The notes beneath the pieces are model-generated. The model made no database searches, was not told the origin of the DNA, and saw only the letters and a program-made list of their open reading frames with translations. From IMG/VR virus record IMGVR_UViG_3300037070_001066, positions 32,001-96,000 of that record: DNA of 64,000 nt. One strand, 5' to 3'. Shown here piece after piece: positions 2,792 through 33,700 of this stretch. Made by a program: the position numbers and the translations under genes. The stretch's first letter is position 1. Every line of letters starts with the position of its first letter. The DNA is from a virus.

Positions 2792-3382
2792 ATGATAGGA
2801 ATATATAAAATTACATCTCCATCAAATAAAATATACATTGGTCAAAGTACGGATATTGAAAAAAGATTTAGTCAATATTTAAAGTTAAATTGTAAATTTC
2901 AAAAAAGATTGTTCAATTCATTTACCAAATATGGTGTTGAAAACCATAAATTTGAAATATTGACATTGTGTTATGAAGAACAATTAAGTATATTTGAACG
3001 AGATTTTCAAGAAGCTTATGATGTTATTGGTAAAAATGGATTAAATTGTATATTAACAAATACAAGTTCATTAAAAAAGATTTTATCTGAAGAAACTAGG
3101 ATAAAAATGTCTAATTCTAGAATTGGTTTTAAATTTTCTGATGAATCTAAACTTAAAATGAGTATAGCTAAAAAAGGAAGAAAAAGAACTGAAAAAGAGT
3201 TGAAATCTTACGAGTTATATCATAGTTCTAAATCTAAACCAATAATTTGTACTAAAACAAATAAAGAATGGTATTCTTTAAGAAAATGTGCTAAAGAGCA
3301 TGGAATTTCAAAAAGCATATTAAGTAATTATTTGAATGGTAAAAATCCTAATAAAACAACATTGATTTATAAAAATTCTTAA
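2792..3382 (+). mobile_element. free-standing GIY-YIG homing endonuclease with NUMOD DNA-binding repeats
   Basis: GIYKITSPSNKIYIGQS, R..Y, E, GLN; SEETRIKMS/SDESKLKMS NUMOD3 repeats; C-terminal HTH-like segment. Confidence 0.9.
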
Positions 3383-7626: not shown

Positions 7627-8658
7627 ATGACAGAAATAAATTTAAATAAAGTTTTTGTTACAAAATCTAATCTTTTGAATCATATATCAGACTATGAAAT
7701 ATACAAAATGTATATAGGTAACACTGCTATAAATACAAAAGGGAGGATAAGATCTCCGTTAAGAGAAGATGAATCTCCTTCATTTGGATTCTTTATTGGA
7801 GAGACTGGTGAATTATGTTTTAAAGACTTTGTTCTTGGTTCAGGTGATTGTGTAAGGTTTGTTATGTTTAAATTTGGACTTACTTATTTTGAAGCATTAA
7901 GCCAGATTGCAATAGACGCTAACTTAGATGATAAATTTATTATAAAAGCTTCGTTTAAAACAAGCGTAATAAGTGACAGTAAAGGAAAAAGAGAAGACTT
8001 CGTTAAAACAGTAAATTCGAACTATCTTGGTAAAACAAGTAGGAATTGGGAAATAAGAGACTACGTCTTTTGGAATCAATTTGGTATAACTAAGCCAATA
8101 TTAGAGAGGTATAATGTTCAACCTGTAGCATATCTACATGTTGGAATAGATAAGAAGATAGTTAAACCTGATTTTCATACGTATTGTTACAATGAAATGA
8201 AAGATGGAATTAATTCTTTTAAAATATATCAACCTAATAAAGAGGAATACAAATGGTTAAACAACCATAATGATTCTGTATGGCAAGGATGGACTCAATT
8301 ACCAGAAAAAGGAGATACTCTTATAATTACTAAATCATTAAAAGATGTTATGGCTATTGCTGGAGTAACAGGAATACCTGCTGTAAGCTTACAAGCTGAA
8401 GGTAGTAAACCTAAACAAAGCGTGATAGACGAACTTCAAGAAAGATTTGAAACTATATTCGTATTATATGACAACGATTATGATAAAACTGTCAATTGGG
8501 GTAGAGAGTTTGGACGAAAACTTTCTAGCGCACATGGATTTTGTCAAGTTGAAATAGAAGAGGCTTATAGATCAAAGGATTTCAGTGACTTAGTAATGAA
8601 TCATGGCGAAAAGCTTTCAAGAAAATACTTAGAAGAACTAATAGAAAGACCTTTTTAA
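7627..8658 (+). CDS. DNA primase (crAss-type DnaG/TOPRIM)
   Basis: SPLRED.SPSF, FKDF..G.GD; TOPRIM ITKSLKDVM, YDND, KDFSD. Confidence 0.9.
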   Translation: MTEINLNKVFVTKSNLLNHISDYEIYKMYIGNTAINTKGRIRSPLREDESPSFGFFIGETGELCFKDFVLGSGDCVRFVMFKFGLTYFEALSQIAIDANLDDKFIIKASFKTSVISDSKGKREDFVKTVNSNYLGKTSRNWEIRDYVFWNQFGITKPILERYNVQPVAYLHVGIDKKIVKPDFHTYCYNEMKDGINSFKIYQPNKEEYKWLNNHNDSVWQGWTQLPEKGDTLIITKSLKDVMAIAGVTGIPAVSLQAEGSKPKQSVIDELQERFETIFVLYDNDYDKTVNWGREFGRKLSSAHGFCQVEIEEAYRSKDFSDLVMNHGEKLSRKYLEELIERPF

Positions 8659-8660
8659 AA

Positions 8661-9083
8661 ATGGAAGAAAAAATCATAGTTGGAGTATATGATGGCCTTA
8701 GAAAAAATGGAGAATCTCATGATTTATTTATGTCAAAAGCTAACTACTTAGGCACATTTTATACTGAGCCAGAATTCTCACTATTTTCATTCTCTAAAAA
8801 ATATCCAGCACTAAGTTTAGGAGGTTCCACTTCTGTTTTGTTAGAAGTCTATGAGGTTACTGAAGAAATTTTAAAGACAATAGATTACTATGAAGGGTGT
8901 AATGACATAGATCCTTATATGAATATCTATAATAAAGCAGAGATTGAAACTCCGTTTGGTGAATGTATTATCTATATCTACAACAGGATGGTAGTAAACA
9001 AGCCGCTTATTGAATCAGGTGATTGGTTTAGATTTAAAAAAGAAGTAAGACAACGAATAGAAGAAACAAGAAAAATAGTATAA
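8661..9083 (+). CDS. gamma-glutamylcyclotransferase-like protein (second copy)
   Basis: GVYDGLRKNG (variant of YGTLR), YPAL, EVYEV, DYYEG, IESGDW. Confidence 0.85.
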   Translation: MEEKIIVGVYDGLRKNGESHDLFMSKANYLGTFYTEPEFSLFSFSKKYPALSLGGSTSVLLEVYEVTEEILKTIDYYEGCNDIDPYMNIYNKAEIETPFGECIIYIYNRMVVNKPLIESGDWFRFKKEVRQRIEETRKIV

Positions 9084-9086
9084 ATC

Positions 9087-9965
9087 ATGGTAATAAACAT
9101 TAATTCAAAAAAGAAAGTAGGAGATGTTCTATTATCAGTTGCATTAAGAACTGGTAAATATGTTCCAATGATTAGAAGCAGACATCCTTCTCATGCAGGT
9201 TTAAGAAGAGCTTTACCTAAACTTCCGTTTAGAAGTGTCATCAGACTAGGCTCTCTGACTGTATTAGAGGACGATAGCAGCAAGAAAGGGAACAGGGTGG
9301 AACTGAACAGTGCATTGGCTATAAAGAATAGCTCTAGCAAGCTTAAAATGAAGCAATGTTTTACTCAAGGAGGCGTTAAAACAGCTGAATGGATATATTC
9401 TACAAGTGAGAATGATATCATAAATTGGCTGAAGGAATATCCAATTGTGGCTAAAAGCCATATGGGTTCTCGCGGAAGAGGAAATACATTGTTGAAAACT
9501 GAAGCTGAAGTAAGAGCTTTTATTAGAAGCAAGGATCTTTCACATTACATTTTTGAAAAGTATTATAACTACAACAAGGAGTATAGATTGCATGTCAGTG
9601 CTGACGGTTGCTTTTATGCTTGTAGAAAAATGCTTAAGAATGAATTTAAAGATCATCCTAATGCGTGGCAAAGACATGATGACAATTGTTCTTGGATACT
9701 TGAAGAGAATGAAATGTTTGACAAACCTACAAATTGGGCTAATATAATTGATCATTGCGTTAAAGCATTGATTAGTTGTGGTCTTGATTTTGGAGCATGT
9801 GATTTGAGAGTTCAAAACAATATTGATAAAGAAGGAGTTAGAAGACTTCAACCTGACTTCATTGTTGTAGAGATTAATTCTGCGCCATCATTTGGTAAAG
9901 TTACTCTTGAAAAATACAAAGAAGTATTACCTCAACTTTTAGTTAAAAAACATGAAAATCGTTAA
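9087..9965 (+). CDS. ATP-grasp ligase (RimK/glutathione synthetase-like)
   Basis: PIVAK..GSRGRG, FEKY, EYRLHV, LDFGACD, VEINSAPS. Confidence 0.9.
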   Translation: MVININSKKKVGDVLLSVALRTGKYVPMIRSRHPSHAGLRRALPKLPFRSVIRLGSLTVLEDDSSKKGNRVELNSALAIKNSSSKLKMKQCFTQGGVKTAEWIYSTSENDIINWLKEYPIVAKSHMGSRGRGNTLLKTEAEVRAFIRSKDLSHYIFEKYYNYNKEYRLHVSADGCFYACRKMLKNEFKDHPNAWQRHDDNCSWILEENEMFDKPTNWANIIDHCVKALISCGLDFGACDLRVQNNIDKEGVRRLQPDFIVVEINSAPSFGKVTLEKYKEVLPQLLVKKHENR

Positions 9966-10173
9966 AAAAGGAGATGAACCAACTTTTGTTCCTATAACCT
10001 TATATATTACTATAGAGAGCAAAGAGGAGCAAGAGACGTTATTATCATTATTTAAAACAATAACTTCTCATGAGTTAACAACAATTGCTTTAAAGAATAC
10101 AAAAGAACATCTTAACCAAAAGGTTATTAGCACATTTATAGGAGGTTTTTATAATTCATTATTAGATAAATAA
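9952..10173 (+). CDS. hypothetical protein
   Basis: 73-aa ORF overlapping the ATP-grasp stop. Confidence 0.6.
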   Translation: MKIVKKGDEPTFVPITLYITIESKEEQETLLSLFKTITSHELTTIALKNTKEHLNQKVISTFIGGFYNSLLDK

Positions 10174-10180
10174 AAAAAAC

Positions 10181-10921
10181 ATGAAAAAAATAATTGGAGT
10201 TTATGCTGATGTAGCAAATGGTAGAGTTGGTCAAACAGCTCCGTATATGCAATTCTTAGGTCAATTTGGTAATGTACGTTTAATACTACCTACTGACAAT
10301 TTAAGAGAGGTTGCAAAAAGTATTGATATGTTAGTATTGCCTGGAGGTTCTGATATAAATTCTGCCAAATATAATCAAGCGCCAGATATTATGACAGGAC
10401 GTCCTAATATGCATTTTGATTATTTAGATGCTAATCTGTTGCCTTTGGTAATTGAGATGAAGAAACCTATTTTAGGTATTTGTCGAGGTATGCAAGCATT
10501 AAATGTTCACTTTGGTGGTACATTAAATCAGCATGTTATTGGTCATCACCAAGGAGACAATCGTGCTGCTACAAAGCAAGAAATTCAATTTGAAGACGGA
10601 AAGAAACCGCATATGATTAACTCTATGCACCATCAATCTGTTAACATTTTAGGAGATGGTTTTGAAATTGTAGCTTATAGCCAATGTTATCAAGGATGTT
10701 ATTCTGAAAAGAAACATGTTAGAAACTGGTATTTTGTTGATGACAAGAAGAAGAAAGAATTCTTTGAATGTATTGTCATCATTGAGATGATTAAGCACAA
10801 AAATCTTCCTATTGTTGGAGTTCAATGGCATCCAGAGGAGTTCAATTGTAAAGTTACAGTTGATTGTATTAACACTTTATTAAAAGAATATGAAGAAAAA
10901 GTTAGCAGTCCTAGTAAATGA
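10181..10921 (+). CDS. class I glutamine amidotransferase / peptidase C26 (PuuD-like gamma-glutamyl hydrolase)
   Basis: LPGGSD, GICRGMQ nucleophile elbow, NSMHHQ, GVQWHPE catalytic triad. Confidence 0.92.
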   Translation: MKKIIGVYADVANGRVGQTAPYMQFLGQFGNVRLILPTDNLREVAKSIDMLVLPGGSDINSAKYNQAPDIMTGRPNMHFDYLDANLLPLVIEMKKPILGICRGMQALNVHFGGTLNQHVIGHHQGDNRAATKQEIQFEDGKKPHMINSMHHQSVNILGDGFEIVAYSQCYQGCYSEKKHVRNWYFVDDKKKKEFFECIVIIEMIKHKNLPIVGVQWHPEEFNCKVTVDCINTLLKEYEEKVSSPSK

Positions 10922-11570
10922 TTCAGCAGATTATGAATCTTATGTTGCGTTCCTTAAACTAAAATATGATATTGAGCTTGTAAAGCTTTCTTCTATTGCA
11001 AAGAAAGAAACGATTCCTGAGATTGATTTAATGTTGTTTACTGGAGGAGAAGATGTTGATCCAGCTTATTACAATGAGAAACCTGGAAAAAGAACATTCT
11101 ATAATCCTTCAAGAGACAATGATGAATCTAAAATGTTTAGAATGCTAAATCAAAAGATTCCAAAACTTGGAATTTGTAGAGGAAGTCAATTCTTAACTGT
11201 AATGAGTGGTGGTAAATTAATACAACATGTGGAAAATCATGGTATTGGTGGAACTCATTCAATTACATTTGATTATATTCATAATCATAAAATGCAGATT
11301 ACGTCAACGCATCACCAAATGATGTATCCTTTTGATTTATCAAAGAAAGAATATATACTTTGTGCTTATGCAACCAACTATTTAAGTCCTATATACTTAA
11401 ATGGTAATGACAGAAACATTGAAGTGCCTGAAGAATTCTTGGAGCCAGAGATTGTATTCTATCCTAGAAGTAATTCTTTAGCAATTCAAGGTCATCCTGA
11501 ATCTGGTATTATGTCAGATGATGGAAAAATGTTTATATTGAACTATATAGACAATGTATTAAAGCTTTAA
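10890..11570 (+). CDS. class I glutamine amidotransferase / peptidase C26 (second copy)
   Basis: FTGGEDV.P..Y, GICRGSQ, TSTHHQMM, IQGHPE. Confidence 0.92.
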   Translation: MKKKLAVLVNDSADYESYVAFLKLKYDIELVKLSSIAKKETIPEIDLMLFTGGEDVDPAYYNEKPGKRTFYNPSRDNDESKMFRMLNQKIPKLGICRGSQFLTVMSGGKLIQHVENHGIGGTHSITFDYIHNHKMQITSTHHQMMYPFDLSKKEYILCAYATNYLSPIYLNGNDRNIEVPEEFLEPEIVFYPRSNSLAIQGHPESGIMSDDGKMFILNYIDNVLKL

Positions 11571-11595
11571 CATTAAACCTTTAAATTATAAAAAC

Positions 11596-12414
11596 ATGGA
11601 AAAAATTGTAGAAAACAAGCATGGAGTTACCTTAGGTAGTGATCCTGAGATTTTTATATGTAATGCTGAAGAGATCGTCTCAGCAGAAGGTTTAACAGGT
11701 GGAACGAAACACGATCCCGTTCCAATTAGCGAGGAAGGACATATGATTCAAGAAGATGGTATTGCTCTCGAGTATAACATACCAGCTTGCTCCACAGTAG
11801 AGGAGTTTATTGCTCATCATGAATTTGTTCAAGACTATTTTAAAGTTTTAATCGCCGCTCATGGTTATGAGTTTAGCAAAGAAAGAAGTGCGGATATTAA
11901 TCCAATCTTCTTGCAAACTGAGCAAGCTCAAACATTTGGGTGTGAACCTGATTATAACGTTTATACTAGAAGCGAGAACGAAGCTCCTGAATCAGGACAG
12001 AATTTAAGATGTGTTGGAGGTCATATTCACATTGGATATCCAGATCCAGACCAAGACGTTACTGAGAAAATTGTAATGATGTTTGACATGTTTGCAACCT
12101 TGCCATCTCTATTTAAAGACAATGATACGCGTCGTAGAGAATTGTATGGTAAAGCCGGTAGTTTTAGGTTTAAGATTTTTGGATTAGAATGTAGAGCATT
12201 GTCTAACTTTTGGATTCATACAAGAGAAGACATGACTTGGGTATGGAATCAAACAATGAGAGCTGTTAATTGTGTTCTTGACGGAGAGTCTGATGCTTTA
12301 ATTGAAAAGTATTCTTCTGATGTTAGAAATGCAATTAATACTGCTGATTTAAAATTAGCAGCTGAATTGATGATCATGATTGATCATGAAGTACAAAAAG
12401 AAGTGGTAGAATAG
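11596..12414 (+). CDS. phiEco32-like COOH-NH2 ligase type 2
   Basis: LGSDPE.F, GGTK..P, QEDG...E.N, FGCEPDYN, R..GGHIH.G, RRELYGKAG..R.K..G.E.R..SNFW. Confidence 0.9.
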   Translation: MEKIVENKHGVTLGSDPEIFICNAEEIVSAEGLTGGTKHDPVPISEEGHMIQEDGIALEYNIPACSTVEEFIAHHEFVQDYFKVLIAAHGYEFSKERSADINPIFLQTEQAQTFGCEPDYNVYTRSENEAPESGQNLRCVGGHIHIGYPDPDQDVTEKIVMMFDMFATLPSLFKDNDTRRRELYGKAGSFRFKIFGLECRALSNFWIHTREDMTWVWNQTMRAVNCVLDGESDALIEKYSSDVRNAINTADLKLAAELMIMIDHEVQKEVVE

Positions 12415-12435
12415 ACAAACAAACAAGACTAAATA

Positions 12436-14403
12436 ATGGAAATAAAAATTTTATTACTACTATTATTAGCACATTATATACTCTTCTTTCTATTTAGAGG
12501 GAAGGGTGATGTGCTCGCTTGCGGTATATTTGGATGGTCTGGAAGCAGAACTACAAGATTTAACAAGCAAAAATTTGATATTCTAGGACTTTTTAACAAT
12601 TCAAGAGGTGGAGATTCATGTGGAGTGTCTACAGATGGAGAAATCTATTATGGTACACTTTTAAACAAAAGTTATGATGACTTTGTTGTTAACAAGAATT
12701 ATCTTTCTCCTGTAAGAATTCCTGTTGTTATTGGACATTCTCGTAAAGCAAGTGTTGGAGCTGTAAGTGAAACAAATGCTCATCCATTTGGATTTGGAGA
12801 TTTAGGAGAAGGTCATGCTTTTATTGGGTGTCATAATGGTACTTTAAGCAATTATGAGGAACTTGGTAAAAAATATGAAGTCGAAACTTCTGTCTACAGT
12901 GAAAGAAATATGTTCCTAAGGACTAAAGTAGATTCTGAAATACTATTGGAGATACTATATAAAACTAAAGATACGGAAGTATTACAAGAATATATAGGAG
13001 GAGCTGCTTTATTATTCCAAAATTTAGAAGAACCTAACACATTATTTGCATTTCATGGAGCTTCTAAAAAAGAAGTTGGAGATAGAGGTGAAACTTTATA
13101 CGAAGAAAGACCTTTATATTACTATCAAGAAGCAAAAGATTCAGTTTACATTTCTTCAATAGAAGAAGCTTTAATATTCATAGGTGGAGAAAAAGACAAA
13201 ACTGTTTTTGAATTTGATCACAATCTTTTGTACAAAATCAAAGATGGAAATGTTGATAAAGCTGTAACTTATGAAGTGGACAGGAGAGGAGCTGGCCAAA
13301 AGAAACCCTATGGGGGTGCGGGTTTTTGCATGGGTGGGACGGCTACTGGGACTAATACTGCCAGAAACCACGGTCCTGCCAAAAGGGGAAAGCGAAAAGA
13401 AAGAAGTAAATCTAGACGGTTCAAACAAATAGCAAATGTCGCAAATATATACGATGAAACTGTTATTGAGGGAGACTTTAAATCTGCAATATATTATAAC
13501 AAATTAAGATATTGGAGAAATGGTCACTTAATAGATGGTGTTTTCACATATATTAAAGGATTTGGTTTGTATAAGATCGGAGATCAAGCTTCTGATTCAA
13601 ATAATAAATTGTATCAATTGATGGGAGAACACTTTAGTCTTGAAGATGGTATGTTTTTAGATACTGTTTATTTAGAACAAAGACTCGCTCTTGATGAAAC
13701 TATATTTGTACCATTTGAATTTAGTACAAAGGAACCACCTGTATTCTTCTTTCATAATGGAATCATGCTAGAAACAATGCATGACTTTGCTGCATTAAAT
13801 GGAGAGTATGCAAGTAAATTTTCCTTTGAACATTTATCGCAAATGTCTAAATACCCTATCTGTAGAATGCGCAAGAATCGGCCAGACAATAACAGACAAG
13901 AAATACTTTATAATGGTCAGCCTTATACCAATAATTTTATACCTTTGCAATGTAATAATTGCTACAATATTGAAAATGGTAATTTAATCAATATAGATAG
14001 GTTAGAAGAAATTGTTGTGAAAGAAGCTGAAATTTGTTGTTCTGTTAAGATTCCTTCTACTAATGAGGTGATACAGTTGCCCATGGAATTTGATGCTCCA
14101 ATTATGGGGCCGAATAGTTTGATCAATGCATATCATCCTGCTAGACCAACTGTTGAATTTCTGGATGAAGATCCTCCTATTGAAGATTATTTCCAAAAAA
14201 AGGGAGATGATGAAAAGGTTTTGAGCATCATTAATAAGCACATTATGCCAGTTTACACACAATTGCAAACTTGTAATGAGGATCTTAAAAATGAAGAAGA
14301 TGAAACTATTCAAGAGCTTATTGACTTAAACAAGGATTACTTATTGAGTGTTGACTGTATTGTTGAATCAAAATCCAAAGAAAATGAAGGAGAAGCTAGT
14401 TAA
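12436..14403 (+). CDS. class II (Ntn) glutamine amidotransferase with hydrophobic leader and long C-terminal extension
   Basis: CGIFG at aa 29, RGGDSCG, GHSRKAS, NAHPF, HNGTL, VDSE. Confidence 0.9.
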   Translation: MEIKILLLLLLAHYILFFLFRGKGDVLACGIFGWSGSRTTRFNKQKFDILGLFNNSRGGDSCGVSTDGEIYYGTLLNKSYDDFVVNKNYLSPVRIPVVIGHSRKASVGAVSETNAHPFGFGDLGEGHAFIGCHNGTLSNYEELGKKYEVETSVYSERNMFLRTKVDSEILLEILYKTKDTEVLQEYIGGAALLFQNLEEPNTLFAFHGASKKEVGDRGETLYEERPLYYYQEAKDSVYISSIEEALIFIGGEKDKTVFEFDHNLLYKIKDGNVDKAVTYEVDRRGAGQKKPYGGAGFCMGGTATGTNTARNHGPAKRGKRKERSKSRRFKQIANVANIYDETVIEGDFKSAIYYNKLRYWRNGHLIDGVFTYIKGFGLYKIGDQASDSNNKLYQLMGEHFSLEDGMFLDTVYLEQRLALDETIFVPFEFSTKEPPVFFFHNGIMLETMHDFAALNGEYASKFSFEHLSQMSKYPICRMRKNRPDNNRQEILYNGQPYTNNFIPLQCNNCYNIENGNLINIDRLEEIVVKEAEICCSVKIPSTNEVIQLPMEFDAPIMGPNSLINAYHPARPTVEFLDEDPPIEDYFQKKGDDEKVLSIINKHIMPVYTQLQTCNEDLKNEEDETIQELIDLNKDYLLSVDCIVESKSKENEGEAS

Positions 14404-16396
14404 AACAATTAAAGGAGAAGATCGTAATGAGAAAGACTGTAGACTTATTGATGGACAATACTATTATATAGGGGACATCCATAGAGAAAACTCTGGAGAT
14501 ATATATCTAATTAACAATAGATATATAAGAGCGTCTACTGAAAGAATCGTATTCGATCATTTTGAAGGTGAGTATAAGTTGAAAAATAGCAGTTTAACTC
14601 ATGGTATAATTGATATTGAAGACGGAACTCCTGTATTTGGTTATTTCTCTAAAAATGATCTTTATAACGTAAAGGTTATAGTTAAGGATTTGAGCGAAAG
14701 AGTTGCAATTTCAGCAAATGTACTTGGATATGAATTCAGAGAAAGAAGATCTGATGGAGTGTTCTATCACATTTCCCTTTTAGATGCTAATAAGTTTAAC
14801 CTGCTTAGAGGTATTTCAAGAGAAATAAAAGAAAGCTTTCCTTATGATTCTAAAGGGTCTATTGCTAAAATTACAAAAACATTTGAGTCTAATTACAAAC
14901 CTGTTATTTGTAGAAATGCAGAAATTGTAGGTAAAACTTTAAAGGATTATACATTTGGATTAGAGTTTGAAACATGTGCTGGAATAATACCTAATAATAA
15001 ATTAGTATACTTGCCATTAATACCATTGAGAGATGGTTCAATTAGCGGTATAGAATATGCTACAATTCCATTAAAAGGTCCAGTAGGAGTTCAAGCATTA
15101 ATTGATTCTGTAGATGAATTGAAAAGAAGAACATCCTATAGTGATGAATGCTCTTTACATATACATGTTGGTGGTATGCCAAGAACGACTGAGTATATAT
15201 TAGCATTCTACAAGACTATATCATTGTTGCAAAATGACATATTTTCAATGTTCCCGCTTTACAAGAAATATAATTTTGGCGTTAAACGTAAAAACTATAG
15301 CGCGCCATTTCCATTTGAAGAGATTAACTTTAGAATGGATCCGATCATAAATTATAATGATAAAAAGCAGGTTAATAAGAATTTTGATCATTTGTTCACA
15401 TATTTATCTGGAGGTGTAACTTTCGCAGAATATGGTAATGATTTAAGTCAAGTACTTGTACATCCTCAAGATCCTCAAGGAGCTGCTAAATGGAATATTA
15501 AGCATAGATATTCTTTTGTAAACTTAATTCCTTTAATATTTGGAAATCATCAAACTATTGAATTTAGAATTCATACACCAACGTATGATATAAATAAAAT
15601 ATTGGATTTCTTGATGTTGAATATTTATATAATTGATTATGTTAACATAAACTATAAATTGATTCTTGCAGGCAAAGATACTTTATCTATCATGAGACCA
15701 AGCTTGCAGTTTATGTTAAATGATTATGTAAATAACATTGAAGGAAGTAGTAGAAAAACTATATTTAATGAGTTAAATCGTTATATTAGTGAAAGAAAAC
15801 ATGCTTCTGAAGACATTGCAAGAACAAAAGGTGTTGTTTACCAAGAAGAAGACTTAAGACTTCCTAAAGGTTTAGGATTTAATACCTACAAATACCATAG
15901 ATCAAATGGATCTTATTTTTCAGCTTCATATCTTGAAGATATTCTATACGAAAGTAGTCTGAGTAGCTTTGACAGCCCTTTTGCTGAGGCTTCTATTAAA
16001 TTCGAAGATGTAAATCCTTCTGCTAAATTAAAACTTCGCAGTGATGTTGGAGTTTCTCCTAAAAGGAGGCCAAGAGATTTAGCTAGAGAGAAAGAAGTTT
16101 TAGAATCTTCAAGAAAAGCTCTTGAACAGATACAAGCATCTGAAAAAGAACGTTTAGATAAGGGGTTAGGTGGAGGTTTATATGAGCAAATGAGACAAGC
16201 TGCTGAAATTAGATATTCTCTTAAAGACAATGGAACTAGGCCTGTAATTTCAGATCCTGGAACTTTATCTGGACTTGGTGTATCTACTTTTGGAACTAGC
16301 GGCTCTGTTCAAGTTAAAGAAAGTTCTTATGATTGGACTCTTAAGGCTTCTAAGTCTAATGATGATTGGGAAGAATCTATACATAAACCAGAATAG
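14348..16396 (+). CDS. putative amidoligase (COOH-NH2 ligase superfamily); likely start ATG 14384
   Basis: FGLEFET, RDGSI.G.EY, CSLHIHVG, RY..VN, TIEFR.H. Confidence 0.85.
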   Translation: MLTVLLNQNPKKMKEKLVKTIKGEDRNEKDCRLIDGQYYYIGDIHRENSGDIYLINNRYIRASTERIVFDHFEGEYKLKNSSLTHGIIDIEDGTPVFGYFSKNDLYNVKVIVKDLSERVAISANVLGYEFRERRSDGVFYHISLLDANKFNLLRGISREIKESFPYDSKGSIAKITKTFESNYKPVICRNAEIVGKTLKDYTFGLEFETCAGIIPNNKLVYLPLIPLRDGSISGIEYATIPLKGPVGVQALIDSVDELKRRTSYSDECSLHIHVGGMPRTTEYILAFYKTISLLQNDIFSMFPLYKKYNFGVKRKNYSAPFPFEEINFRMDPIINYNDKKQVNKNFDHLFTYLSGGVTFAEYGNDLSQVLVHPQDPQGAAKWNIKHRYSFVNLIPLIFGNHQTIEFRIHTPTYDINKILDFLMLNIYIIDYVNINYKLILAGKDTLSIMRPSLQFMLNDYVNNIEGSSRKTIFNELNRYISERKHASEDIARTKGVVYQEEDLRLPKGLGFNTYKYHRSNGSYFSASYLEDILYESSLSSFDSPFAEASIKFEDVNPSAKLKLRSDVGVSPKRRPRDLAREKEVLESSRKALEQIQASEKERLDKGLGGGLYEQMRQAAEIRYSLKDNGTRPVISDPGTLSGLGVSTFGTSGSVQVKESSYDWTLKASKSNDDWEESIHKPE

Positions 16397-16398
16397 AC

Positions 16399-17097
16399 AT
16401 GAAGGTAATCTATTACAAAGAAGATAGTAGCTTTAATTTGGCTGTTGATTATGGTAAAATGATTGGTAATGGTTGGTCTAGAAGATTGAAAGAATATCTT
16501 CACAGTAAGGATATGCAAGATACTATGTATGAAGTTTCTAAATTATACACTAACAAGCATTTAGCTATGTTTCCTGCAAAGGATCAAATTTTCGCTTCAT
16601 TAGGTAAAATGGATCTTACTGAGATTAATGTTGCCATAATAAATTGTAATCCTACGTTTAATTATAGAAGTAATGGCGTTGCCTTTTCTAATACATCTAA
16701 GCACAGAGGAGATATCGACCTTCAATTGTCTAACTTATTTGATAAGATAAACATCTATGAAAGAAGAACATCTTCTGCTGAGGATTACACTTTAGACCAT
16801 TGGATAGAACAAAGTGTGTTTTTATTCAATGTATCATTAACTGGATTCACTAGTTATAACCAACGTTCTTTATGGTTTGGATTCTCAAGAGCTGTTATTG
16901 AGACCATTAGTAGATGTAGGCAAGGATTAGTTTTCTTATTTATAGGTACAGAAGAACAATGCAAGCTTTACAGCGAAAAAGTCGACCAACGAAAACATAC
17001 GATTTTAAGACACGATACACTTAGCTATGACGCGCTAAATGAAGTCAACCTTGAAATCGATAGTATAGATGGTAAAGATTATAGAATTAAATGGTGA
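16399..17097 (+). CDS. uracil-DNA glycosylase family 1-like protein with degenerate catalytic motifs
   Basis: FP.KDQIF, NG.AFS, L.HW..Q.VFL.N..LT, W..F, LVFL..G; GQDPY replaced by NCNPT; HPSP absent. Confidence 0.75.
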   Translation: MKVIYYKEDSSFNLAVDYGKMIGNGWSRRLKEYLHSKDMQDTMYEVSKLYTNKHLAMFPAKDQIFASLGKMDLTEINVAIINCNPTFNYRSNGVAFSNTSKHRGDIDLQLSNLFDKINIYERRTSSAEDYTLDHWIEQSVFLFNVSLTGFTSYNQRSLWFGFSRAVIETISRCRQGLVFLFIGTEEQCKLYSEKVDQRKHTILRHDTLSYDALNEVNLEIDSIDGKDYRIKW

Positions 17098-19328: not shown

Positions 19329-21197
19329 ATGAATTTGAACTTAGATAAGCAAATATTAAGTGATATAACGGTACATACAAAGTACGCGAAATACTTACCT
19401 GTAGAACAACGTAGAGAGACGTGGGCGGAATTAGTCAATAGGAATATGAACATGCACATTAAGAAGCATCCAACTTTAGAGGAGGATATCAAATATGTGT
19501 ATGAACATTACGTAATGACGAAGAAAATCCTACCTTCCATGCGAAGTCTTCAGTTTGGTGGTAAAGCCATTGAGTTAAATAATAGTAGAATATATAATTG
19601 TGCATTCTTGCCTATTGATGATATACGGAGTTTCAGTGAAACAATGTTCTTATTGTTAGGTGGATGTGGAGTTGGATATAGTGTTCAAGGACATCATATC
19701 GATAAGTTACCTGAGATTAGGAAGCCTAACTATAGCCGTAGAAAGCGATATGTAGTACAGGATAGTATAATTGGGTGGGCTGATGCTATAAAAACTTTAT
19801 TTAAATCATATACTGGCTCTATTAATTCACATATTGAATTTGATTTATCAGATATAAGGCCAAAAGGAGCACTTTTGGTGACAGCAGGTGGTAAAGCGCC
19901 AGGCCCGGAGCCTTTGCGTATTGCCCTTGTTAAAATAGAAGCAATTCTTCGAGAGAAGAATGACACTTCAAAACTTACAGACATTGAATGCCACAGAATT
20001 CAATGTTTTATCGCAGATGCTGTACTAGCGGGTGGCATAAGAAGAGCAGCTATGATAAGCTTATTCGATTTAGATAGTGATTCTATGTTAAATTGCAAAG
20101 CTGGTAGCTGGTGGGAGACTATGCCAGAATTAGGTAGAGCGAACAATTCAGTCGTATTACTTAGACATAAAATTGATAAAAAGACTTTTGACAAAGTTTG
20201 GGAACGTATAGAAGTTTCAGGTTCCGGCGAGCCAGGTATATACCTTACTAATGACAAAGATTGGGGAACTAACCCTTGTTGTGAAATTGCGCTTAGACCT
20301 TATCAATTCTGTAACCTATGCGAGATCAATATGTCTAACATACAATCACAGGCCGATCTTAATGAAAGAGCGAGTGCAGCTTCCTTCGTAGGCACGTTAC
20401 AAGCCTCGTATACGGACTTTCATTACCTTCGTGATGTATGGAGAAAGAATACAGAAAAGGATGCCTTAATTGGTGTCTCAATGACTGGAATTGCATCAAA
20501 AAGTAATCTTGAATTAGACTATTCAGTAGCTAGTGAAATAGTTGTTGAACAGAACAGAGTTACAGCTGAAAGGCTTGGAATAAATCAGGCAGCTCGTACT
20601 ACAGCAGTTAAGCCTGCAGGAACAACTTCGTTGGTCTTAGGTACGTCATCTGGAATCCATGCTTGGCATAATGATTATTATATTCGTAGAATTAGATTAG
20701 GAAAGAATGAAGCAATTTATACTTACCTTTCTATCTATCATCCAGAGCTTCTAGAAGATGAATATTTTAATCCTAAGTCACAAGCAATCATCGCTGTACC
20801 ACAGAAGGCTCCTGAAGGGGCTATAACTCGTCATGAATCAACGATCGACCTATTAGAGAGGGTAAAGCTCATTTCAAAAGAATGGGTTAAAACAGGGCAC
20901 TTAAAAGGGCAAAACACGCACAATGTTTCTTGCACAGTATCTGTTAGACCTGACGAATGGAAAATAGTTGGAGAGTGGATGTGGGTTAATAAAGATTATT
21001 ATAATGGACTTTCTGTATTGCCATTTGATGGTGGTACATATAAACAAACTCCGTTCGAGGATTGTTCTAAAGAGACTTATGACAATATGATGAAAACATT
21101 GAAAGGTGTAGATTTATCTAAAGTTGTAGAGCTTCAAGACAATACATCGCTGAATGAAAATTTAGCGTGTGGACCAGGAGGATGTGAAATATTGTAA
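19329..21197 (+). CDS. nrdJ: class II (adenosylcobalamin-dependent) ribonucleotide reductase
   Basis: RRETW, YNC, GCGVG.S, RRAA, RANNS, TNPCCEI, FCNL.E, VKPAGTTS, C-terminal CGPGGCEI; no beta subunit gene adjacent. Confidence 0.93.
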   Translation: MNLNLDKQILSDITVHTKYAKYLPVEQRRETWAELVNRNMNMHIKKHPTLEEDIKYVYEHYVMTKKILPSMRSLQFGGKAIELNNSRIYNCAFLPIDDIRSFSETMFLLLGGCGVGYSVQGHHIDKLPEIRKPNYSRRKRYVVQDSIIGWADAIKTLFKSYTGSINSHIEFDLSDIRPKGALLVTAGGKAPGPEPLRIALVKIEAILREKNDTSKLTDIECHRIQCFIADAVLAGGIRRAAMISLFDLDSDSMLNCKAGSWWETMPELGRANNSVVLLRHKIDKKTFDKVWERIEVSGSGEPGIYLTNDKDWGTNPCCEIALRPYQFCNLCEINMSNIQSQADLNERASAASFVGTLQASYTDFHYLRDVWRKNTEKDALIGVSMTGIASKSNLELDYSVASEIVVEQNRVTAERLGINQAARTTAVKPAGTTSLVLGTSSGIHAWHNDYYIRRIRLGKNEAIYTYLSIYHPELLEDEYFNPKSQAIIAVPQKAPEGAITRHESTIDLLERVKLISKEWVKTGHLKGQNTHNVSCTVSVRPDEWKIVGEWMWVNKDYYNGLSVLPFDGGTYKQTPFEDCSKETYDNMMKTLKGVDLSKVVELQDNTSLNENLACGPGGCEIL

Positions 21198-24914: not shown

Positions 24915-25036
24915 TAAAATCAATAATTAATGGCAATGAAGTTTATGTATATTGGAATGGTGAATTGATTTACAAGAAATGGTTTAATCAAGAACACGGT
25001 GTTGTTTTTCAAAATTACAAAAGATGGCATACATAG
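24905..25036 (+). CDS. small hypothetical protein (not in ORF track)
   Basis: MSIIKSIINGNEVYVYWNGELIYKKWFNQEHGVVFQNYKRWHT*, 43 aa; fills the gap and overlaps both neighbours. Confidence 0.55.
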   Translation: MSIIKSIINGNEVYVYWNGELIYKKWFNQEHGVVFQNYKRWHT

Positions 25037-26106
25037 ACAGAGAATACCATAAATTGCTAAATGCAATTAAAAGAGATGGTTATACGTACGAAGATCCTAA
25101 CAGAGAAGGAGTTTTTAGGACAGAGATTACAAGTTTTACAATAAGGCATTTGTTTAAAAATGGATTTCCATTGATAAGTACAAGGGAGTTGAATTATAAT
25201 AATATTATAGTCGAACTTCTTTGGTTTCTTAAAGGAGATACAAACATTAAATATTTAGTTGACAGAGGTTGTAATATTTGGAATAAAGATGCTTATAAGT
25301 ATTATTTAAAAAAAGGAGGACACGCTTCTGAAAAAATGTTTAAAACTTTAGTATCACAACAAGATGAATTTGACTCAAGGATTAAAGATTATAAGTATGG
25401 TGATTTAGGTCCAGTTTATGGTAGACAGTGGCGTAATTTTAATGGAGTTGACCAAATAGCTAAGTTGATTAAAGGTCTTAAAGAAAAACCTTTAGGAACT
25501 GAACATATTGTAAACTCTTGGAATCCAGCAGATATTCCTGATATGGCTTTACCTCCTTGTCATTATGGATTTCAAGTTGTAGTTAGACCATTAACCGTAT
25601 CTGAAAGGTTTCATGCAACTCCTGGTGCTAATCTAAAAGATGTTGATGTGTTTGTTGAGAACGCACATATTATTTATTTAGATGGAATAGGGGCGCCTAA
25701 ATATGGCTTCGAATTACACTGGGAACAAAGATCTGTAGATACCTTCTTAGGTTTACCCTATAATATAGCCTCCTACGCTTCATTAGCGTTGATCTTAGAG
25801 AAGATAACAGGTCATGTGGCACTAGGTATCCAAGGAAATTTAAAGAAGGTGCATTTGTACGATAATAGCCTCAATGCAGTAGCTCAACAATTGAAGAATG
25901 ATCAGTATTTGAATGACGAATGTAAATTAGTATTTCCTGAAGACGAAGTTAATCCAGATGGACTTGATTTTAATCTTAGAATGGGATATTTAAGGGGGAA
26001 TTTGAGCCTAAATGATTTCATTGAGGAAATGAAACCTGAGTGGTTTTCTATTGAAGGGTATTCACCTTATCCTTCAATTAATGTACCAATGTTAGCAAAA
26101 GATTAA
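25024..26106 (+). CDS. thyA: thymidylate synthase
   Basis: ELLWFLKGDTN, IW, GDLGPVYG.QWR, MALPPCH, QRS.D.FLGLPYNIASY, HLY. Confidence 0.95.
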   Translation: MAYIDREYHKLLNAIKRDGYTYEDPNREGVFRTEITSFTIRHLFKNGFPLISTRELNYNNIIVELLWFLKGDTNIKYLVDRGCNIWNKDAYKYYLKKGGHASEKMFKTLVSQQDEFDSRIKDYKYGDLGPVYGRQWRNFNGVDQIAKLIKGLKEKPLGTEHIVNSWNPADIPDMALPPCHYGFQVVVRPLTVSERFHATPGANLKDVDVFVENAHIIYLDGIGAPKYGFELHWEQRSVDTFLGLPYNIASYASLALILEKITGHVALGIQGNLKKVHLYDNSLNAVAQQLKNDQYLNDECKLVFPEDEVNPDGLDFNLRMGYLRGNLSLNDFIEEMKPEWFSIEGYSPYPSINVPMLAKD

Positions 26107-30733: not shown

Positions 30734-33700
30734 AACATTCTATTAATTTTTCTTTTTCATCGTCACTTAACGCCATGAATGACTCCTTAGTCATAGTAGG
30801 ATCTGCTTGTTGGAAAGCCTTAGAATGCTTATTCCATGAATCTTCAATAAACTTATCATAATCTTGTTCAGTAGTCTCTTCTCCAGTTAAATTCAATGCT
30901 CTTGAGGCATTTCCTTCAATAGTCTCAGCTTTGTTACTAATTCCAATTACAGTAGTTTTAGCTCTAGTTAAAGCCGTATAAATACTTCTAGATTTAGATT
31001 TTGCTGATAAAGGACCAACACTATTGATGTCTTGGATATCTACTATAACACTATCATATGTAGAACCTTGAGATTTATGTGAAGTTATAGCATAAGCATA
31101 ATCTATGTTAGCAAAAGACTTTTTAAGTCCCCATGCTTGTGCATACATTTGCTTTCTTAATGCTCCAGGAGGCATTTGTTTAGCCTTAGCGAACATCTCA
31201 GCTACTCTTTCATTAAACTCAACTTTAGATTCATCTGCAAGTACTGGAAATGACATATCAGTATTAGTTCCATCACCACGCTCTACAGTAACTGCATAAG
31301 CTTGAAAACCATTATATGTAGTCTTTCTAACACCTTTTATAGAGAATTCATCACTATTAGATACCTTAGTTCTAGAATCAACATCAAAGTTGTCTTGGAA
31401 CATTATAATATCATTCTCAATTAATTGAGGCACATCTTCTCCGAATACAGCTTTTCTAATATCATTATTGTAAGCAGTTCTTGTAGCGTTTCTATATGTA
31501 ACAACTTTGATTACATTAGGGTTTTGCTCAAGTATACCTCTTTTAAATGAGTCTACTACATCTTCAAATATATGACCAAATGATCTTACAAATACTAAAT
31601 TACCTTTAGGAGATAATGTATCTTTCATAACTCCATCTGGAACAGGATCTTGTTGAGAAGTTTCTAACTCAGAGTTATCCCAATAATAATCTGCAAATGG
31701 AAGTATAGGAGACTCTTCTCCTTGACGAACACGTTCAGTTAGGCTAGCTTTATTCTCAGAATCAAATACAGGACTAATGCTATCTAAATCAGTTTTAGAC
31801 CATCCATGATAATAAGGATTTTTAAGATCTCTAATAGGAGGCAATTGACCTCTATCTCCCAAGAACACTAATTTAGCAGATCTTCTTTTCATCTCCATCA
31901 TCATCTCAATAGCCTCTTCATTAACCATAGAAGCTTCATCTATAATAATAATATCATGTTTAGTAATCTTAGCATCTTCAGAAAATGAATCAGTAAACTC
32001 ACCTGTCTCAACATCCATAGTCTTGCCTAATATACCAGCTATACTTCCACTTTCAATCTTCCCAGGATATCTATTGTCAAGCTTCTCTGATAAAACTAAC
32101 TTAGCTTTATGAGATAATGCTGCAATTAAAATCTTTTTACCTGCATTTACAAATGGGGCAATAGCTTCTTGTACAATAGTAGTTTTACCAGTACCAGCCT
32201 TACCTTCAATTACAAGTATCTCTCCTGGATTACCATTCTTAACAAACTCTTGAATTACGTTAATTGCATTCTCTTGTTGTTCATTTGCAGGTTTAAATAC
32301 TTGCTTATTATTAATGCTGTCATAAGGAGGGTTTGTTATAATATCAACTTTAGGTGTTGCAAGAATACCATGTTCAGCTAAACTAAGTATGTTCCTTCTT
32401 TCAGAAGATTCATCTACCCATTTCATTATCTTATTATTAGTAAGAGAAATAATTGTATTATTAGGAGTAACAACATAATCACTACCTAAGTAAGTAACAA
32501 ATTTACCTTTCTCTTTTCTACTTGTAAGTTTAGATTTAGATACAGACAGCTTAGCTAAAGCACCTTCCATTCCTGGATTATATATTTGAACAGTTCCTAT
32601 TGCATTAAATTGAGTAACTATATATGGAACTCCATTATAATCTACAAATCTACCAATTTCTAAAGGATATTCGCTAATAGGTTCAATTTTCTTGATATTA
32701 GTACCAGCTTCTCTTTTAACTGCTTCATATTCTTCTTCGGTTAACTCATGAGGAACAACATCTGCATCAGCTGCGTCCATTATAGCCTCTTCAGTTCTTT
32801 TATACAAATCTCTAATGGCTTGTTTTGCAGCTTCTTCTTTTTTAGTTCCTAAATACTCTTGTCTAGGAGTCCATTTATTAGTAGATTTATCTAAAGTATT
32901 ATAATTTTCTATATCTCTAGTTCCAACACCTGCAAAATCCTTAGTCAAAATAGGTGGTTTATGTAGTTCAAAATACTTACCATTCCATCTATTCCACTTT
33001 TCAGTTTTAGTGTCCCATACGTAAACAGGTTTTCTTAACTTAATACCTAATTGAACTGCAGTATTAGTTCCTCCATGTACAGCTGTTGAATTGAATTTAT
33101 CATTAATATCTAAAGGAGCTACAGCAAATACAGCATCAGAATTAGCTACTTGATAGTAATTTCTAACTTGAAGATTGCCTTGAACTGTATTTGGGAATTT
33201 TTTACCAAGCAATCTCTCAACTTCAATCCTAGCAGTTTCCATTTGTTCATCTGTTAATACAGTTGCTTCTACTTTGCTATTTTTAAGTTTTTGAGATAGT
33301 CCAGTATTTTTGCCCTCTCTATAATGTTTATGTTCAGTAACACCAAATTCTCTACCAATAATATCAAAGTATGTATCTGCACCATAAGCTCCACCACTAT
33401 GATTAGTTATTTCAGACATAGAAGATACTTCTAGTACAGGTTCTTTTAATACTATAGAATCTTTTATATCTTCAACTTTACGATATACTGGAGCAAGTTC
33501 TTTAACTTCAACAGGTTTCCCTGGCTCTTCAATTCTTTCATCAACCTCTGATAATTCAAAGTTAGGATTAAAGTTTTCTCTTTCAGTTACAACCATATTC
33601 ATTAAATAGTCAATTTCTTCTTTATTACTTAATTCTGGTCTCTTAATGAATCTATCTCCATATTCTATAACAACACTTCCTTTAAGTTTCTTACCAAGAG

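Follow-up and report, generated by a model that had tools for sequence, protein, structure and literature searches.

What does a phage make when it devotes a contiguous block of genes to forming and cutting amide bonds? The question is raised by a 64,000-nucleotide stretch of viral DNA (positions 32,001 to 96,000 of the IMG/VR record IMGVR_UViG_3300037070_001066, itself 104,771 bp long), which we call the window (GC content ~32%); among named phages, the crAss-like Cellulophaga phage phi14:2 is its closest relative. Positions 8661 to 16396 of the window hold a cassette in which an earlier note, made from the letters of the sequence, had recognized a phage cluster, which is crAss-like; counting a further gene upstream, it comprised three ATP-dependent amide ligases, three glutamine/gamma-glutamyl amide hydrolases and two cyclotransferases. 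Searches with Pfam, PHROGs and NCBIfam confirmed every one of these enzyme calls in its place. We consider it probable (roughly 0.6) that the cassette builds and trims a glutamate-based amide product, each of the three ligases working with a paired hydrolase. The genes concerned, with the one open reading frame (ORF) of the block that has no family match, are the following.

1750 to 2148, + strand: second GGACT/AIG2-type gamma-glutamyl(amine) cyclotransferase (PF06094, 6.8e-19; phrog_2520, 9.5e-23)
8661 to 9083, + strand: GGACT-type cyclotransferase of the cassette (PF06094, 6.3e-14)
9087 to 9965, + strand: RimK-like ATP-grasp ligase (phrog_2599, 8.6e-34; TIGR00768 rimK_fam, 1.3e-9)
9952 to 10173, + strand: non-conserved 73-aa ORF without family match
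10181 to 10921, + strand: Peptidase_C26, a class-I glutamine amidotransferase (GATase), copy a, or C26a (PF07722, 7.3e-32)
10890 to 11570, + strand: Peptidase_C26/class-I GATase, copy b, or C26b (PF07722, 7.8e-20; phrog_7218, 5.7e-36)
11596 to 12414, + strand: phiEco32-type COOH-NH2 ligase (type 2) (PF14395, 27.3 bits against a cut-off of 25; phrog_3815, 6.6e-72)
12436 to 14403, + strand: N-terminal nucleophile (Ntn) class-II glutamine amidotransferase of 655 aa (PF13522, 6e-10)
14348 to 16396, + strand, likely 14384 to 16396: Amidoligase_2 (PF12224, a borderline 22.2 bits against a cut-off of 22; phrog_2443, 2.6e-23)

All genes of the block are co-directional, with intergenic gaps of -32 to +25 nt. 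The GGACT genes number two, one in the block and one 6.5 kb upstream.

Ligase/hydrolase pairs across phage loci

We searched IMG/VR with the COOH-NH2 ligase alone, which returned 55 viral loci (given L numbers below), and typed their ORFs by iterative hidden Markov model (HMM) searches. In the gene orders that follow, P stands for primase, G for GGACT, A for ATP-grasp, c for C26, L for the COOH-NH2 ligase, X for a gene described below, M for amidoligase, N for Ntn-GATase and U for a gene resembling uracil-DNA glycosylase (UDG). The earlier note had made its reading depend on whether the genes co-occur in relatives, and they do: wherever one of the 55 loci holds enough flank, it carries the four-gene core L, M, N and A. 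Because the loci were retrieved by the ligase alone, the recurrence of the same gene set indicates a grouping far beyond chance.

The cassette comes in several arrangements. Crass-like contigs of 90-104 kb have P-G-A-(c)c-L-N-M-U, 25 contigs of mostly ~45-55 kb have c-L-X-M-N-A, LUZ24-like phages have L-X-M-N-A-G, and P-U-G-L-A-N-M is the fourth arrangement among the viral loci. A scan of bacterial and archaeal genomes, which relied on exact peptide patterns and does not show absence elsewhere, gave 19 loci, mostly on contigs of metagenome-assembled genomes (MAGs); those with enough sequence hold the whole cassette. The cassette-bearing MAG contigs look phage-like and contribute further gene orders, and a single divergent ligase stands alone on a Bacteriovoracaceae contig of 546 kb.

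The amidoligase adjoins the Ntn-GATase in 52/52 loci (median gap 7 nt), C26 adjoins the COOH-NH2 ligase in 43/43 loci having a C26 (median gap 26 nt), and the ATP-grasp ligase adjoins GGACT in 18 of 22 loci (median gap 0). The three ligase/hydrolase pairs are conserved units, adjacent through at least four gene orders, and this adjacency supports the write/erase pairing suggested in the earlier note. The description of the cassette as unusually complete and duplicated holds in part. The tandem C26 genes and the second GGACT are indeed present and make this copy mildly unusual, but a C26 pair occurs in at least eight contigs, a second GGACT is found in L007, and one C26 before the ligase is the rule (43/43).

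Gene X, about 200 aa long and placed between ligase and amidoligase, was detected by its HMM in 37 loci of the phiEco32/LUZ24 type (for example L017 10759-11385, L046 9284-9853 and L061 7823-8440) and in none of the crAss-type loci, nor in the window. It has no Pfam match and is probably a sixth member of the phiEco32/LUZ24 sub-type; its use as a sub-type marker is defined here from the 37 loci and does not come from published descriptions. Because gene X was not found in it, the window lies outside the phiEco32/LUZ24 sub-type (order C26-L-X-M-N-A-G) and belongs to the phi14:2-like one. A conversion of gene X into one of the extra domains of the crAss-type proteins was considered and rejected (hhalign probability below 0.1%).

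The enzymes of the three pairs

Active-site conservation was assessed over 47-53 non-identical homologues per family from several phage lineages (22 for GGACT). The catalytic residues, whose absence the earlier note would have taken as a refutation, are conserved across these ~50 homologues: the expected metal, ATP and nucleophile residues of the cassette's enzyme families are 90-100% conserved. The enzymes of the cassette are intact, and the module is real and strongly conserved.

In the first pair, the ATP-grasp residues K85, E165, R167, K181, D239 and E262 are 100% conserved and N264 98% (51 homologues). The best structure matches of the family profile are RimK (5zct/4iwx, E 5e-11; 5zct 4.9e-11), and the profile also matches D-Ala-D-Ala ligases (E 2e-8). 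Its partner GGACT (8661-9083) reads YDGL instead of YGTL at the substrate motif and retains the catalytic Glu62; the second GGACT (1750-2148) has the canonical YGTLR motif and the catalytic Glu61. Y10, L13 and E62 (in-cassette numbering) are invariant in an alignment of 12 GGACT sequences. The cassette GGACTs of relatives resemble the upstream copy of the window more than its in-cassette copy, a pattern of sequence similarity that suggests divergence after duplication. A copy 65% identical to the second GGACT sits at the edge of locus L007. Many of the 45-55 kb contigs carry, directly after the ATP-grasp gene, an ORF of 223-260 aa without Pfam match (L022 10797-11534, L039 11385-12065, L044 14246-14929 and others). 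It occupies the place of GGACT in LUZ24-like phages and may be a divergent or replacement partner.

In the second pair, C26a has an intact Cys101-His217-Glu219 triad, conserved in 47 homologues, and C26b keeps its Cys-His-Glu triad and carries the motifs ICRGSQ, HHQ and GHPES. Both paralogues most resemble gamma-glutamyl-amide hydrolases (Lin1909, PuuD and gamma-glutamyl-CDP-amidate hydrolase); for C26a the best solved relatives are Lin1909 (3fij), the 7d4r chains labeled 'probable glutamine amidotransferase' and PuuD, and its match to the gamma-glutamyl-CDP-amidate hydrolase model NF045546 is 2e-12. The tandem pair is common to at least eight related contigs (L005-L011 and L018). Relatives with a single C26 (L012-L016) are 45-52% identical to C26b versus 29-45% to C26a, and C26b holds the conserved place just upstream of the COOH-NH2 ligase; C26a is the extra paralogue of one sub-lineage.

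The COOH-NH2 ligase has 37 invariant residues among 14 diverse homologues, including D16, E18, K38, E117, H143, H145, R191, E198 and R200. Its homologues occur in 316 deposited phage records, with named hosts that include Pseudomonas, Escherichia, Vibrio, Aeromonas, Proteus, Salmonella and Cellulophaga. Searches of PDB sequences with the single sequence and with the profile returned no relatives.

Two genes of this second pair are found interrupted in relatives. The C26a homologue of L005 (7648-9339) is split exactly before the codon of the catalytic Cys by an insert of ~975 nt, in which an HNH endonuclease ORF runs on the other strand and a group I intron is matched below threshold (RF00028, 29.5 bits, E 2.3e-5). 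In the COOH-NH2 ligase homologue of L018 (4871-6130), an insert of 438 nt without ORF and without Rfam match separates the conserved motifs LRCAG and GH.AIGY; it may be an ORF-less intron. Interruption of two cassette genes at conserved catalytic motifs, in one case with a group-I-intron-like match, is typical of conserved, selected genes.

In the third pair, the Ntn protein is divided as follows, with a C-terminal helical hairpin after the last part listed.

12436 to 12519, + strand: hydrophobic leader of 28 aa
12520 to 13290, + strand: Ntn domain, starting at Cys29
13294 to 13434, + strand: disordered basic linker (residues 287-333)
13438 to 14004, + strand: lineage-specific C-domain (residues 335-523)

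Residues C29, R57, R103, N134-G135 and D166 are conserved. In an AlphaFold (AF2) model built from an 11-sequence alignment, with a predicted local distance difference test (pLDDT) score of 66, the fold of the N-domain matches PurF (Z 22.8, root-mean-square deviation (rmsd) 2.6, 215 residues aligned), GlmS (Z 22.6) and others down to EgtC (Z 19.4); Foldseek matched the model to the same set of folds (E 6e-11). The leader has a Kyte-Doolittle score of 2.22 (19-residue window) and a predicted helix at residues 2-19, and in the window no start codon stands directly before Cys29. Such a leader precedes the catalytic Cys in 5 of 11 Ntn homologues (window, L005, L007, L008 and L013), the other six beginning Met-Cys, which implies a cleaved propeptide or a membrane tether.

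The Ntn linker is disordered and very basic, with a KRGKRKERSKSRR-like run, a character kept in close relatives and not in the L013-L016 group. The C-domain of ~190 residues was found in a large-database search only in the same architecture (20 proteins, all with PF13522). It has no Pfam match even at E 5, and an Atlas feature search gave nothing, with structure rows at TM scores of 0.26-0.33 only; Foldseek and the wide structure search barely probed this domain, their matches being filled by the N-domain and the terminal helices.

The amidoligase consists of an N-terminal beta-rich domain, a catalytic core resembling glutamine synthetase (GS), glutamate-cysteine ligase (GCS2) and Dop, and a disordered variable tail; alignment with 10 homologues favors the ATG at 14384 over the GTG at 14348 as its start. 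In an AF2 model (pLDDT 76), the top 18 fold matches are all glutamine synthetase, Glu-Cys ligase, YbdK or Dop/PafA (Z 7.0-9.1, the next match falling to 5.4), and GS, Dop and YbdK align over 204-214 residues at Z 8.7-9.1 and rmsd 4.0-4.6. The Z values of this predicted structure are modest, yet the match list is uniform and spans the whole core. Residues E206, E208, D229, E236, H271, H273, E405 and R407 are conserved (53 homologues). A profile search of PDB sequences found no relatives of the amidoligase. Its N-domain occurs only fused to viral amidoligases; a zinc finger, suggested by the LIM label on some Atlas neighbors, was rejected since the window sequence has a single Cys. Complex prediction with Ntn-GATase 29-525 and amidoligase 1-460 gave no support for an interaction, a result that is not evidence either way.

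Candidate functions of the cassette

How might three such pairs work together? We propose that three ATP-dependent carboxylate-amine ligases, each beside an enzyme predicted to cut gamma-glutamyl or glutamine amide bonds, would assemble a short gamma-glutamyl-type amide-linked product stepwise, at the expense of ATP, in the cytoplasm of the infected cell. The RimK-like ATP-grasp ligase would act with the GGACT cyclotransferase, the COOH-NH2 ligase with Peptidase_C26 (two copies in the window) and the GS/GCS2-fold Amidoligase_2 with the Ntn class-II amidotransferase. What is made may be a small peptide or conjugate, or else a glutamyl tag attached to a molecule common to many bacteria, and the paired hydrolases could either supply ammonia from glutamine or trim and remove glutamyl groups.

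The glutamate chemistry is deduced from relatives. RimK adds L-Glu, and GS, Glu-Cys ligase, PuuA and PafA activate the gamma-carboxylate of Glu; PuuD/C26, EgtC-type Ntn enzymes and GGACT remove gamma-glutamyl groups. Since the characterized relatives of the ligases and hydrolases all work on glutamate, a glutamate-based product is the most likely one. Hydrophobic segments and signal peptides were found in none of the cassette enzymes except for the Ntn leader, so the predicted site of the chemistry is the cytoplasm, and action on the mature cell wall or on a surface receptor is unlikely. By analogy with its phi14:2 counterpart, the cassette would be an early-transcribed operon within the replication module. 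It adjoins non-orthologous primases in unrelated phage lineages with very different hosts, a spread across lineages, primases and hosts that argues for a self-contained function and a widely shared target.

Several points weigh against this proposal. The literature offers hypotheses and no product, substrate or phenotype for any member of the cassette. C26 is missing from phi14:2, phiEco32 and LUZ24-like phages and GGACT is undetectable in many loci, so the hydrolases are accessory and a strict three-pair model is not universal. The presumed specificity for glutamate is carried over from remote relatives, which are 10-20% identical in the GS-fold core, and the COOH-NH2 ligase has no solved relative. 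The nucleophile Cys of the Ntn protein is masked by the 28-residue leader, and the predicted enzyme would be active only if processed. Finally, the adjacency counts represent a handful of independent rearrangements in related phages and form a pattern with little statistical weight. We nevertheless regard the readings that place the cassette in the cell wall, in amidotransferase pairs, in metabolism or in DNA modification as less likely than a glutamate-based product.

The first of these holds that the ligases make unusual stem-peptide links in peptidoglycan precursors and the hydrolases recycle them, the altered wall blocking superinfection by other phages. This hypothesis recurs in the literature, where it is stated for the RIO-1, phiEco32 and LUZ24 cassettes (PMC5498523; PMC11945000; PMC10580990). 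The ATP-grasp match to D-Ala-D-Ala ligases (E 2e-8) and the membrane-like leader on 5/11 crAss-type Ntn proteins would suit it, but the best ATP-grasp relatives are RimK glutamate ligases rather than Ddl, and family scans of the cassette and its neighborhood turned up neither a Mur-type ligase nor a peptidoglycan-binding domain, signal peptide or flippase. GGACT and C26 act on L-gamma-glutamyl amides, whereas the stem peptide contains D-Glu. No experiment supports the hypothesis, and parts of the gene set occur in phages of Gram-positive hosts, namely a Bacillus subtilis phage (PMC11945000) and mycobacteriophage Marvin (PMC10580990), whose stem peptides are unlike those of Gram-negative hosts. 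We judge a role in the wall unlikely.

Slightly less probable still is that the pairs are two-subunit glutamine-dependent amidotransferases that amidate a carboxylate in the manner of MurT/GatD or asparagine synthetase, with the Ntn-GATase feeding ammonia to Amidoligase_2 and C26 to the COOH-NH2 ligase. The invariant adjacency of both pairs (52/52 and 43/43, with near-zero gaps) would be expected of such subunits, the full glutaminase catalytic sets are conserved (Cys1/Arg/Asn-Gly/Asp in Ntn and Cys-His-Glu in C26), and the extra Ntn C-domain could dock a partner. However, the ATP-grasp/GGACT pair does not fit, GGACT not being a glutaminase; the cassettes of phi14:2, phiEco32 and LUZ24-like phages have a COOH-NH2 ligase without any C26; and the closest relatives of C26 (PuuD, Lin1909 and gamma-glutamyl-CDP-amidate hydrolase) are stand-alone gamma-glutamyl-amide hydrolases.

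We give little credence to an auxiliary role in the metabolism of free gamma-glutamyl compounds, whether glutathione-like peptides, gamma-glutamyl-polyamines or folyl-polyglutamate tails, by which glutamate, glutamine, polyamine or folate pools would be redirected to phage DNA synthesis. The set of folds does mirror glutathione synthesis and breakdown (GCS-fold ligase, ATP-grasp ligase and GGCT), C26 resembles PuuD-type gamma-glutamyl-amine hydrolases, GGACT enzymes by Pfam definition free amines from gamma-glutamylamines, and the cassette lies among genes of nucleotide metabolism, the ribonucleotide reductase (RNR, 19329-21197) and thymidylate synthase (25024-26106). Yet no oxidase, transporter or folate-binding domain is linked to it, three different ligases exceed the needs of any such simple pathway, and all similarities to equivalog models fall short of their cut-offs.

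Equally doubtful is a bolder reading, in which the three pairs make up a reversible system for glutamyl tagging that is complete in itself and would be the phage's equivalent of pupylation or tubulin-type glutamylation. Its target, early in infection, would be a protein common to many bacteria or the replisome of the phage itself. If true, this reading would account for the location beside non-orthologous primases and for movement between lineages as a unit. Searching for a Pup-like tag, we found no + strand ORF of 25-130 aa in window positions 1-27000 that ends in GGQ, GGE, GQ or GE.

Amino-acid-type hypermodification of phage DNA bases or nucleotides is very improbable: its support is positional (a cassette in the replication module, beside a primase in unrelated lineages and beside a UDG-like gene without catalytic motifs) apart from the highly basic Ntn linker, but a normal-looking thymidylate synthase is present, none of the cassette's enzyme families has a known nucleic-acid substrate, and a PHROG scan of 20 neighboring ORFs, nine of them without any match and with models possibly absent from the libraries, found no annotated DNA base-modifying enzyme, known thymidine hypermodification clusters having a 5-hmdU DNA kinase and an amino-acid:DNA transferase.

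With crAss-like carriers from seawater, human gut and soil, the cassette is among the most widespread phage enzyme modules without a known product, and identifying what it makes would probably uncover a new means by which phages rewire infected cells. Because the pairs are conserved as units, each can be tested jointly, which gives a concrete basis for reconstitution.

Neighborhood and comparison with known systems

The replication module of the window lies on the + strand, and the - strand has giant ORFs, the longest of 3046 aa. Near-identical DNA was found in 9 DNA sequencing runs, mostly soil metagenomes, three of which are possibly the source sample; none of the runs listed is of RNA. The cassette is surrounded by the following genes.

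7627 to 8658, + strand: DnaG-type DNA primase, 5' flank (phrog_12622, 4.6e-59)
16399 to 17097, + strand: UDG-like gene, 3' flank (TIGR00628 ung, 1.9e-18, far below cut-off)
19329 to 21197: RNR, in the neighborhood of the cassette
25024 to 26106: thymidylate synthase, in the neighborhood of the cassette

The primase lies directly upstream of the cassette, as it always does in crAss-type loci, and the order P-G-A is shared by 17 crAss-type loci. The UDG-like gene is degenerate, its GQDPY motif reading NCNPT and its HPSPLS loop being deleted, and the same motif loss is seen in L005, L006, L007 and L018; phi14:2 has GKEPY and the uncultured gut phage cr108_1 the canonical GQDPY, indicating stepwise degeneration within the lineage. 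The thymidylate synthase homologue, at 360 aa, is above the usual size and matches PHROGs in two stretches, which suggests an insertion. Between the second GGACT and the helicase region is a GIY-YIG-type homing endonuclease gene (2792-3382; phrog_314, 3e-25). The 73-aa ORF of the cassette (9952-10173), which ends in LLDK, has no Pfam, PHROG or NCBIfam match and no tblastn match in any retrieved locus. An Rfam scan of window positions 1-26500 found nothing at the gathering score.

The cassette is the crAss-type version of a phage amide-ligase cassette that is already known and not a new kind. It is annotated in phi14:2, cr108_1, phiEco32, Proteus phage Privateer and LUZ24-like phages, and has Pfam families of its own. 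Iyer and colleagues reportedly predicted it in phiEco32-like phages in 2009 (Mol Biosyst 5:1636). Passages in later papers trace the module idea to Iyer et al. 2009, some also to Hardies et al. 2013, and call it a putative peptidoglycan-modification or peptide-tagging module; none reports a product, in agreement with the earlier note, which knew of none (PMC10580990, PMC5498523, PMC11945000, PMC3890496).

The closest counterpart is phi14:2 g037-g041 (Crassvirales, Steigviridae), where the genes stand at the same position as in the window and run as they do there, from primase through GGCT, ATP-grasp, COOH-NH2 ligase, class-II amidotransferase and amidoligase to UDG and RusA, at 34-52% protein identity. 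Both have the amidoligase N-domain and the Ntn C-domain. The cassette region of phi14:2 is among those that the virion RNA polymerase transcribes early; unlike the window, phi14:2 has no C26 gene and no second GGACT. In cr108_1 (crAss-like, Steigviridae, Pipoluvirus) the order is primase, ATP-grasp, two unknown ORFs, one amidotransferase in the C26 position, COOH-NH2 ligase, GATase, amidoligase and UDG; it differs from the window in having no annotated GGCT, a single gene in the C26 position and a UDG with GQDPY.

The type example behind PF14395 and PF12224 is phiEco32 gp77-gp86 (Kuravirus). As the earlier note had supposed, the window is related to this neighborhood, sharing five enzyme families with it: the COOH-NH2 ligase gp86 (35% identity to that of the window), amidoligase gp84, class-II GATase gp83, ATP-grasp gp80 and GGCT gp77. 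The phiEco32 cassette adjoins primase/helicase, as that of the window adjoins a primase. Its order, L-X-M-N-A-G with interspersed small ORFs, is unlike that of the window, and it has gene X (gp85), no C26 and an amidoligase without the N-terminal domain, the window being the opposite on all three counts. The 'putative peptidoglycan modification module' of LUZ24-like and RIO-1-like phages (UFV-P2 ORF21-29, PSA-HP1 ORF40-47), conserved across podophages (PMC3890496; PMC5498523; PMC11945000), has the enzyme families of the window. It differs in its shorter Ntn and amidoligase proteins, in the presence of gene X, in its lineage and in a T7-type primase/helicase (PMC3890496).

Among biochemical systems, the folds of EgtA/EgtC, PuuA/PuuD, BtrJ/BtrG, RimK and PafA/Dop match those of the cassette without orthology (identities of 10-23%, all equivalog cut-offs missed). 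In EgtA/EgtC (ergothioneine), PuuA/PuuD (putrescine) and BtrJ/BtrG (butirosin), which are precedents for a conserved ligase/hydrolase pairing, a GS/GCS-fold or ATP-grasp ligase makes a glutamyl amide that an Ntn-, C26- or GGCT-type enzyme removes; PafA/Dop serves pupylation. Unlike these analogues, the window has no linked enzymes for chemistry between the adding and removing steps. Taken together with its phage relatives, the cassette of the crAss lineage forms a distinct sub-type that lacks gene X and is marked by an extra amidoligase N-domain, an Ntn C-domain with a helical hairpin, an Ntn leader and one or two C26 genes.

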